From Escherichia coli (GTDB taxonomy: Bacteria > Pseudomonadota > Gammaproteobacteria > Enterobacterales > Enterobacteriaceae), in the NCBI RefSeq assembly GCF_013122565.1, contig NZ_CP053258.1: a stretch of DNA of 64,000 bases; one strand, 5' to 3'. Positions 39,401 through 39,753 of this stretch are shown here, piece by piece; positions within the stretch are counted from its first letter, which is position 1; every line of letters begins with the position of its first letter. The position numbers are program-made.

Positions 39401-39753
39401 GTCAGTTGTGAAGCCATGTACACCTTTCCAGATACGGGAGGCGAAGTCATTTCTTCCTTCGCCCTGGTGGCAATCTTTACGAGCATTGTCACGGCCAAAG
39501 CACCGTATCAGTTGACCCAGGTGCAGAGGCTAGAGTGTTTAGTAGTTAAGCCGATACTAGCGTGTAAACGAGATTTTTACCATCCACACTTTCGCTATGT
39601 AATCATGTATATAGCGTCATGATCGTGCTATTTCGCTACAGAATAAGGGAAAATGGCGGTTTTACTTTGATATACATCATCAGGGAGGCATAGCGTACAT
39701 CGTCCTTTAGAGGTAGAAGAAAATAGTTTGTATCCTCAATATTGGCAGGTTAA

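Follow-up and report, generated by a model that had tools for sequence, protein, structure and literature searches.

The closest described system is the moaA leader of Escherichia coli K-12, the allele in which the Moco riboswitch class has been studied experimentally as its representative (Regulski et al. 2008, PMC2408646). In that study a translational fusion driven by lacUV5 and carrying 149 nt of the K-12 leader, of which only 21 nt lie beyond helix P1, shows a more than 3-fold fall in expression upon induction of the moa operon (PMC2408646). Mutation M1 in P3 of the K-12 leader abolishes this repression and the compensatory mutation M2 restores it (PMC2408646). Deletions of mogA, moeA or modC derepress the fusion and a mobA deletion still represses it; in the modC deletion repression is restored by molybdate, not by tungstate (PMC2408646). 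These results suggest that the signal is Moco itself and that the leader works as an OFF switch, hiding the ribosome binding site in P1.

That Moco binds the RNA directly has yet to be demonstrated, owing to the instability of the ligand (PMC2408646), and in 2024 the literature still calls the exact metabolite unidentified and elsewhere describes the RNA as still 'of unknown structure'. The reservation about the word riboswitch in its strict sense, that of protein-free ligand binding, concerns the whole class and not the moaA locus in particular. Here we describe the moaA leader in a 64,000 nt stretch of an E. coli genome (GCF_013122565.1, contig NZ_CP053258.1), referred to below as the window, to which all positions refer. 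The functional data are those of the K-12 allele, which differs from the window element at 39544 and 39549 only.

Identification of the element at the moaABCDE locus

The moaABCDE genes lie on the minus strand of the window, and moaA is separated from the divergent yvcK by a 397 nt intergenic region (39418-39814) that holds a long non-coding moaA leader. The genes and the element are as follows.

38428-39417, minus strand: moaA (GTP 3',8-cyclase) coding sequence, ATG at 39417-39415, first gene of the regulated moaABCDE operon
37894-38406, minus strand: moaB, member of the moaABCDE operon
37406-37891, minus strand: moaC, member of the moaABCDE operon
37168-37413, minus strand: moaD, member of the moaABCDE operon
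36714-37166, minus strand: moaE, member of the moaABCDE operon
39405-39549, minus strand: Moco riboswitch (RF01055), 145 nt, an aptamer with a built-in expression platform for translational control, reaching 13 nt into moaA

When all 64 kb of the window were scanned with the covariance models of Rfam 15 at their gathering thresholds, a single riboswitch match came out, the Moco RNA motif RF01055 on the minus strand at 39549-39405. The alignment runs untruncated over model positions 1-135 of 135, with a score of 102 bits (gathering score 36) and E = 3.3e-24. The match adjoins and overlaps moaA, a Moco biosynthesis gene, in whose 5' UTR it lies, and the same 145 nt are named "molybdenum cofactor riboswitch" in the RefSeq/PGAP annotation of K-12 and of the closest strain, 88-3493. 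Positions 39405-39549 of the minus strand thus hold the Moco riboswitch of E. coli moaA, which belongs to RF01055 by each feature open to testing. It is already known and annotated, and the window adds nothing new on the open questions of the class; its value is that of a positive control, in which a textbook cis-regulatory RNA was placed from sequence alone and the standard test agrees. Other Rfam matches in the window are the naRNA4 (CssrE) nucleoid-associated, REP-derived RNA at 12244-12314 on the plus strand (72.7 bits against a gathering score of 59.5) and the ES036 (CssrF) sRNA at 40814-40855 on the plus strand in the yvcK-uvrB intergenic region (43.4 bits against 37.6).

The original prediction had assigned the minus-strand leader of moaA to a Moco riboswitch and had set a covariance-model search beforehand as its refuting test, should the match be insignificant; the significant, full-model match and the RefSeq annotation bear it out. 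Its warning that the boundaries were approximate was apt, as the interval given, 39425-39580, needs correction to 39405-39549: it covers 125 of the 145 nt, omits 39405-39424 and adds 39550-39580. The omitted segment contains the 3' strand of P1 (39424-39420 and 39414-39411) with the Shine-Dalgarno G residues (39424, 39423 and 39421) and the start codon, so that the expression platform is missing from the earlier interval; the Shine-Dalgarno A residues 39426-39425 lie inside it. The additional ~31 nt (39550-39580) correspond to the core promoter of S1 and appear in RNA only when transcription begins at S2, further upstream. The ~160-nt leader of the prediction fits neither of the mapped 5' UTRs.

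Anatomy of the riboswitch

Projection of the Rfam alignment onto window coordinates gives the helix map below, in which 33 of the 41 consensus pairs are canonical in the window sequence.

39533-39547, minus strand: P1, 5' strand, with inner ACAC-C at 39538-39535 plus 39533, and U39534 bulged
39411-39424, minus strand: P1, 3' strand, in which GGUGU (39424-39420) is the Shine-Dalgarno core
39547/39411, 39546/39412 and 39544/39414, minus strand: outer pairs of P1, of which 39414, 39412 and 39411 lie within codons 2-3
39494-39530, minus strand: P2, with three consecutive non-canonical pairs, 39527-39525 opposite 39497-39499
39467-39492, minus strand: P3 stem-loop, closing helix GUGAC/GCCAC with an A.C mismatch, extended by AAU/AUU
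39439-39464, minus strand: P4 hairpin, GAAA tetraloop at 39453-39450 with tandem G.A/A.G beneath
39428-39438, minus strand: P5 mini-hairpin, CC...GG in the CCUCCC-N6-GGAAAGG junction core, whose invariance is that of columns fixed by the search pattern
39421-39426, minus strand: Shine-Dalgarno AAGGUG of moaA, as read from the sequence, 3 nt upstream of the AUG

The five-stem architecture P1-P5 is present together with the conserved junction nucleotides (CxAGC, GCC-G, AGGG, CCUCCC and GGAAAGG), the first of these appearing in E. coli-type leaders as CUAGC in place of the consensus CGAGC. In inner P1, ACAC-C (39538-39533) pairs with GGUGU (39424-39420), and the AUG at 39417-39415 sits in the internal loop that separates inner from outer P1. 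The GG core of the Shine-Dalgarno sequence (39424-39423) is 5 nt from the AUG, and the family description likewise has the ribosome binding site within P1 (PMC2408646). The non-canonical run in P2 coincides with the position of the family's tetraloop-receptor bulge, and the GAAA tetraloop of P4 is invariant in 71 leaders among the matches listed. P3 is full length, with an E. coli-specific 16-nt extension, and its presence makes this a Moco-responsive element rather than one of the tungsten-cofactor subtype.

Comparative support for the fold

A pattern scan (CCAGGG-N16-26-CCTCCC-N6-GGAAAGG, one genome per species) finds at least 120 loci. Among the matches listed, 74 of the 85 that are not repeats lie directly upstream of a moaA homolog (35-98% protein identity), and five further loci are Rfam-confirmed Moco motifs ahead of genes other than moaA. 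The same junction core is found in Gammaproteobacteria, Deltaproteobacteria, Firmicutes and Synergistetes. The start codon lies no more than 12 nt from GGAAAGG in 64 of the 74 moaA-linked leaders among the matches listed, which shows a ribosome binding site built into P1 to be the normal moaA layout.

One group of pattern matches was excluded. A G/C-rich repeat of ~190 nt is scattered over contig OY282442.1, from an uncultured Dehalococcoidia MAG (L037-L069), in at least 33 copies whose mean identity to one another is 76%. These match the Moco core pattern by chance, and none of the three copies scanned has an Rfam match; the repeat is possibly a REP- or MITE-like element.

In a MAFFT alignment of 71 moaA leaders among the matches listed, 78% of consensus pair positions hold standard pairs, a figure that falls to 33-45% after sliding the 3' partners 1-3 columns; double-sided changes occupy 555 cells, against 136-178 when slid. 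P1 looks weak in this alignment (59% paired), the result of a one-column register shift introduced by the E. coli U39534 bulge, and a covariance model was therefore built for re-alignment. It was made from 19 Enterobacterales leaders without Rfam, and 81 matches were re-aligned to it, giving 80 distinct sequences among the matches listed. The window element scores 131 bits against this Rfam-independent model, the window itself being in the training set.

In the model-based alignment of these 80 leaders, which is fitted to the model and leans towards its structure, 87.7% of pair cells are standard versus 33-47% when slid, and 679 cells carry double-sided changes versus 86-129; some junction columns in the alignments are fixed by the search pattern. 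Double-sided changes occur in 28 of the 38 pairs. By helix, P2 has them in 10 of 11 pairs, P3 is 97% paired with compensatory changes in four of five pairs, and P4 is 89% paired with seven compensatory pairs. P1 is 83% paired across the 80 leaders, compared to 67% in shuffled sequences, and none of 500 shuffles reaches 83%. RNAalifold, applied to an unfitted MAFFT alignment of the 19 Enterobacterales leaders, recovers P1-P5 de novo.

Enterobacter, Lelliottia and their relatives (L011:1383-1430, L020, L080, L081 and L100) have an additional short hairpin, such as CACGUUUUC-N-GAAAACAU, inserted between the conserved -10 and transcription start region and P1 of the riboswitch. Escherichia and Citrobacter are without it.

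Thermodynamic folding of the leader

Folding of the single sequence gives a different picture. The leader has a minimum free energy (MFE) of -45.1 kcal/mol over 181 nt, with z = -0.58, no better than shuffled sequence, and under the nearest-neighbour model the consensus fold, at -25.2 kcal/mol, is 17 kcal/mol worse than an MFE of -42.0 kcal/mol reached by a different fold. The consensus fold is thermodynamically disfavoured, and thermodynamic folding alone would therefore miss or mis-draw the element; single-sequence folding was not used as evidence for or against it.

The MFE structure pairs the 5' strand of P2 (39525-39519) with the Shine-Dalgarno region (39419-39425). This helix was considered as a conserved ligand-free state and rejected: across the 80 leaders among the matches listed it is 71% paired versus 69% in shuffles, with a covariation score of 0.157 versus 0.139, and so gains no support over what the shared CCU/AGG composition would give. 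When the K-12 RNA was examined by in-line probing without ligand, much of P2 was not formed (PMC2408646), and the element is published to take more than one conformation when refolded in vitro. A weak thermodynamic preference for the aptamer fits both of these observations.

That the MFE is no more stable than that of shuffled sequences is the one point in favour of a covariance-model match arising by chance or composition, with no specific RNA element in the leader. The match is full-length with E = 3.3e-24, the Rfam-independent model gives 131 bits (though with the window in its training set), compensatory variation in the orthologous leaders is strong, and the RefSeq annotation agrees. The covariance-model score and the compensatory variation in two alignments refute a chance match, to which we assign a vanishingly small probability.

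Sequence conservation within E. coli

A 451-nt query around the leader, spanning the intergenic region, was compared with the 5426 complete E. coli genomes, 5424 of which carry the element. The best match to this query is strain 88-3493 at 99.8%, with K-12 at 99.1%. Window and K-12 differ within the query by four bases, at 39544, 39549, 39569 and 39697, with zero differences across 39405-39543, compared with 214 differences (2.9%) in the surrounding 7.45 kb.

No exact copy of the 145-nt element is found among the complete E. coli genomes, the best being 99.3% identical. The base behind this is 39544, an A on the plus strand and hence a U in the RNA at +4 of the S1 transcript, where the RNA has C in 88-3493, K-12, E. 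albertii and another close relative. The substitution changes an outer C-G pair of P1 to U.G, with pairing kept, and is probably neutral. Position 39549, just upstream of the S1 start, is U here and A in K-12.

The differences from K-12 are clustered. Fifteen fall in 39000-39249, the 5' part of moaA, and in yvcK there are 26 in 40000-40249 and 21 in 40500-40749; elsewhere there are 2-9 per 250 nt. Clusters of this kind, flanking a conserved regulatory region with four differences in 451 nt, suggest a mosaic or recombinant history for the locus.

Promoters and upstream operators

According to PMC2408646, the S1 start lies 131 nt from the start codon and S2 at -87 relative to S1, with ModE-molybdate activating S1 and FNR activating S2. 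The K-12 5' UTR cloned by Adams et al. 2021 begins AACCACUAAACAC (PMC7815308), whose 5' end corresponds to window position 39547 and gives A39547 as the approximate S1 start. With S1 at ~39547 and S2 at -87, the leader is ~130 nt long from S1 and ~217 nt from S2. Both starts are placed approximately, from the literature, -10-like hexamers and operator spacing. The upstream features are as follows.

39546-39559, minus strand: S1 promoter -10-like TAGTAT (39559-39554) and transcription start, the hexamer 7 nt upstream of 39547
39593-39616, no strand assigned: ModE operator palindrome CGCTATGTAATCATGTATATAGCG, centred ~57 bp upstream of S1
39667-39680, no strand assigned: FNR-type site TTGATATACATCAT with one mismatch, ~40 bp upstream of the S2 start

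The hexamer TAGTAT, which is kept as TA(G/C)TAT in other enterobacterial genera, is the presumed -10 of S1. The ModE palindrome CGCTATGTAATCATGTATATAGCG has one mismatch to CGNTATATA-N6-TATATANCG, for which 0.13 matches are expected per window. The FNR motif is insignificant alone, with 7 found in the window versus 3 expected; the position of TTGATATACATCAT fits S2 at -87, with an S2 start that we infer at ~39633-39636, and the layout of the predicted sites matches the published pairing of ModE with S1 and FNR with S2. A sigma-70 consensus scan of 39350-39850 found no promoter; both moa promoters are activator-dependent and have poor -35 boxes.

A second ModE-type palindrome, CGTTATATTGTCGCCTACATAACG in the minus-strand reading, is present at 61103-61126 between acrZ (61250-61399) and modA, 20 nt upstream of the modA start codon (ATG 61083, minus strand). 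It is the modABC operator, which places both ModE targets on the window, ~21.5 kb apart.

Mode of regulation

In the mechanism that we consider most likely, the moaABCDE mRNA starts at S1 (~39547, activated by ModE-molybdate) or at S2 (~87 nt upstream, activated by FNR), and its leader folds as the multi-stem junction P1-P5, the GAAA tetraloop of P4 probably docking into the irregular bulge of P2. Abundant Moco (Mo-molybdopterin, the product of MoaA-E, MogA and MoeA) would stabilise the aptamer fold, and P1, stabilised in turn, would bury the Shine-Dalgarno core and hold the AUG in the adjoining internal loop. Ribosomes would thereby be kept off, and neither MoaA nor the downstream gene products would be made; with Moco scarce, P1 and the aptamer would be less stable and translation would proceed. 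CsrA bound inside the aptamer would favour the open state, and untranslated moaA mRNA would also meet Rho-dependent termination inside moaA. Within this riboswitch account, direct Moco-RNA binding and the tertiary contacts are steps that we infer. We hold the account as a whole, a Moco riboswitch acting as a cis-acting OFF switch on the moaABCDE mRNA, with high confidence.

Three features bear on the parts played by CsrA and by transcription termination.

39455-39457, minus strand: GGA motif at the top of P4, a candidate CsrA contact suggested by the sequence
39427-39429, minus strand: GGA motif in the 3' strand of P5 and J5/1, a candidate CsrA contact that adjoins the Shine-Dalgarno sequence
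39399, minus strand: abundant K-12 Term-seq RNA 3' end (K-12 coordinate 817052), 19 nt into moaA, with the RNA ending ...CAACTGACTG

CsrA binds two sites in the moaA aptamer and activates translation (PMC7652899); as putative counterparts of these sites we suggest the GGA motif at 39457-39455 and that at 39429-39427. Together with the literature's lack of proof for direct ligand-RNA binding (PMC2408646), a protein that binds twice within the aptamer and alters translation raises the alternative of a leader that is indeed structured but serves as a protein-dependent translational operator, the sensor being a Moco-binding protein or CsrA alone. Against this, the motif ranges over Gammaproteobacteria, Deltaproteobacteria, Firmicutes and Synergistetes, well beyond the distribution of any one candidate protein. 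In size and complexity it matches metabolite aptamers and not protein-bound RNAs, and decades of moa genetics have found no Moco-binding protein of this kind (PMC2408646). The presence or absence of P3 moreover tracks molybdenum versus tungsten metabolism (PMC2408646), and CsrA activates and does not mediate the repression by Moco (PMC7652899). A protein operator is accordingly improbable, and the riboswitch account is retained.

A less remote, though still unlikely, alternative is that premature transcription termination, either by Rho or at a processed or paused 3' end, is the main output, with occlusion of the Shine-Dalgarno sequence merely the trigger for uncoupling. It draws on the abundant K-12 3' end at window position 39399 and on a bicyclomycin-sensitive region inside the moaA reading frame (~300 nt in, ~284 nt past that 3' end), as well as on a moaA fusion that is up more than 2-fold in rhoR66S (PMC7815308). 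K-12 coordinates 817214 and 817336, which mark RNA 3' ends or Rho-dependent read-through inside moaA, correspond to window positions ~39237 and ~39115. However, the aptamer-adjacent 3' end at 817052 has a Rho score of 1.24 and is classed 'No', that is, not Rho-dependent (PMC7815308), and there is no intrinsic terminator after the aptamer. Repression is also seen from lacUV5 with 21 nt beyond P1, which leaves little room for Rho (PMC2408646), and a Shine-Dalgarno sequence within P1 is a feature conserved across genera. Termination, by Rho or otherwise, is best seen as an added downstream layer on translational control by the riboswitch and not as an alternative to it.

The 3' end at 39399 corresponds to a riboswitch-containing RNA of ~149 nt from S1. 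Given this reported end and the reported CsrA binding, such an RNA might be stable and, beyond its role in cis, build up and work in trans, for instance as a sink for CsrA at the two GGA motifs. We consider this very unlikely; if true, it would link Moco status to the Csr network. In the cis-acting account, a costly and oxygen-sensitive pathway of cofactor synthesis is governed at three levels, by FNR, ModE and the riboswitch, and CsrA and Rho act on top of these.

Comparison with known systems

The K-12 moaA Moco riboswitch shares with the window its locus, its 145-nt extent, the gene order (yvcK and the divergent moaABCDE) and the ModE and FNR sites. The two are identical from 39543 to 39405, including all of P2-P5, inner P1, the Shine-Dalgarno sequence and the AUG, and differ by two peripheral substitutions in the window, U for A at 39549 and U for C at 39544.

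The P3-less variants proposed as sensors of the tungsten cofactor (Tuco/Wco) have the P1, P2, P4 and P5 core, the tetraloop and its receptor in common with the moaA element (PMC2408646). The moaA element differs in having a full P3 (39492-39467) with its 16-nt extension, and the K-12 copy is not repressed by tungstate (PMC2408646).

The leaders activated by CsrA, ymdA and moaA itself (PMC7652899), have GGA motifs, candidate contacts in moaA, in or near a structure that hides the Shine-Dalgarno sequence and is opened by CsrA. In moaA the hiding structure is a metabolite aptamer, so that two inputs converge on one RNA.

A further arrangement is seen at a bacterial locus (L072) that carries tandem full-length Moco motifs at 3260-3409 (78.6 bits) and 3552-3671 (78.4 bits), ~140 nt apart and with no moaA within 1.3 kb downstream of either. 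These and the terminator-type Moco motifs belong to the same aptamer family as the moaA element, which differs from them in being a single aptamer with an integrated platform, the Shine-Dalgarno sequence itself forming the 3' strand of P1.
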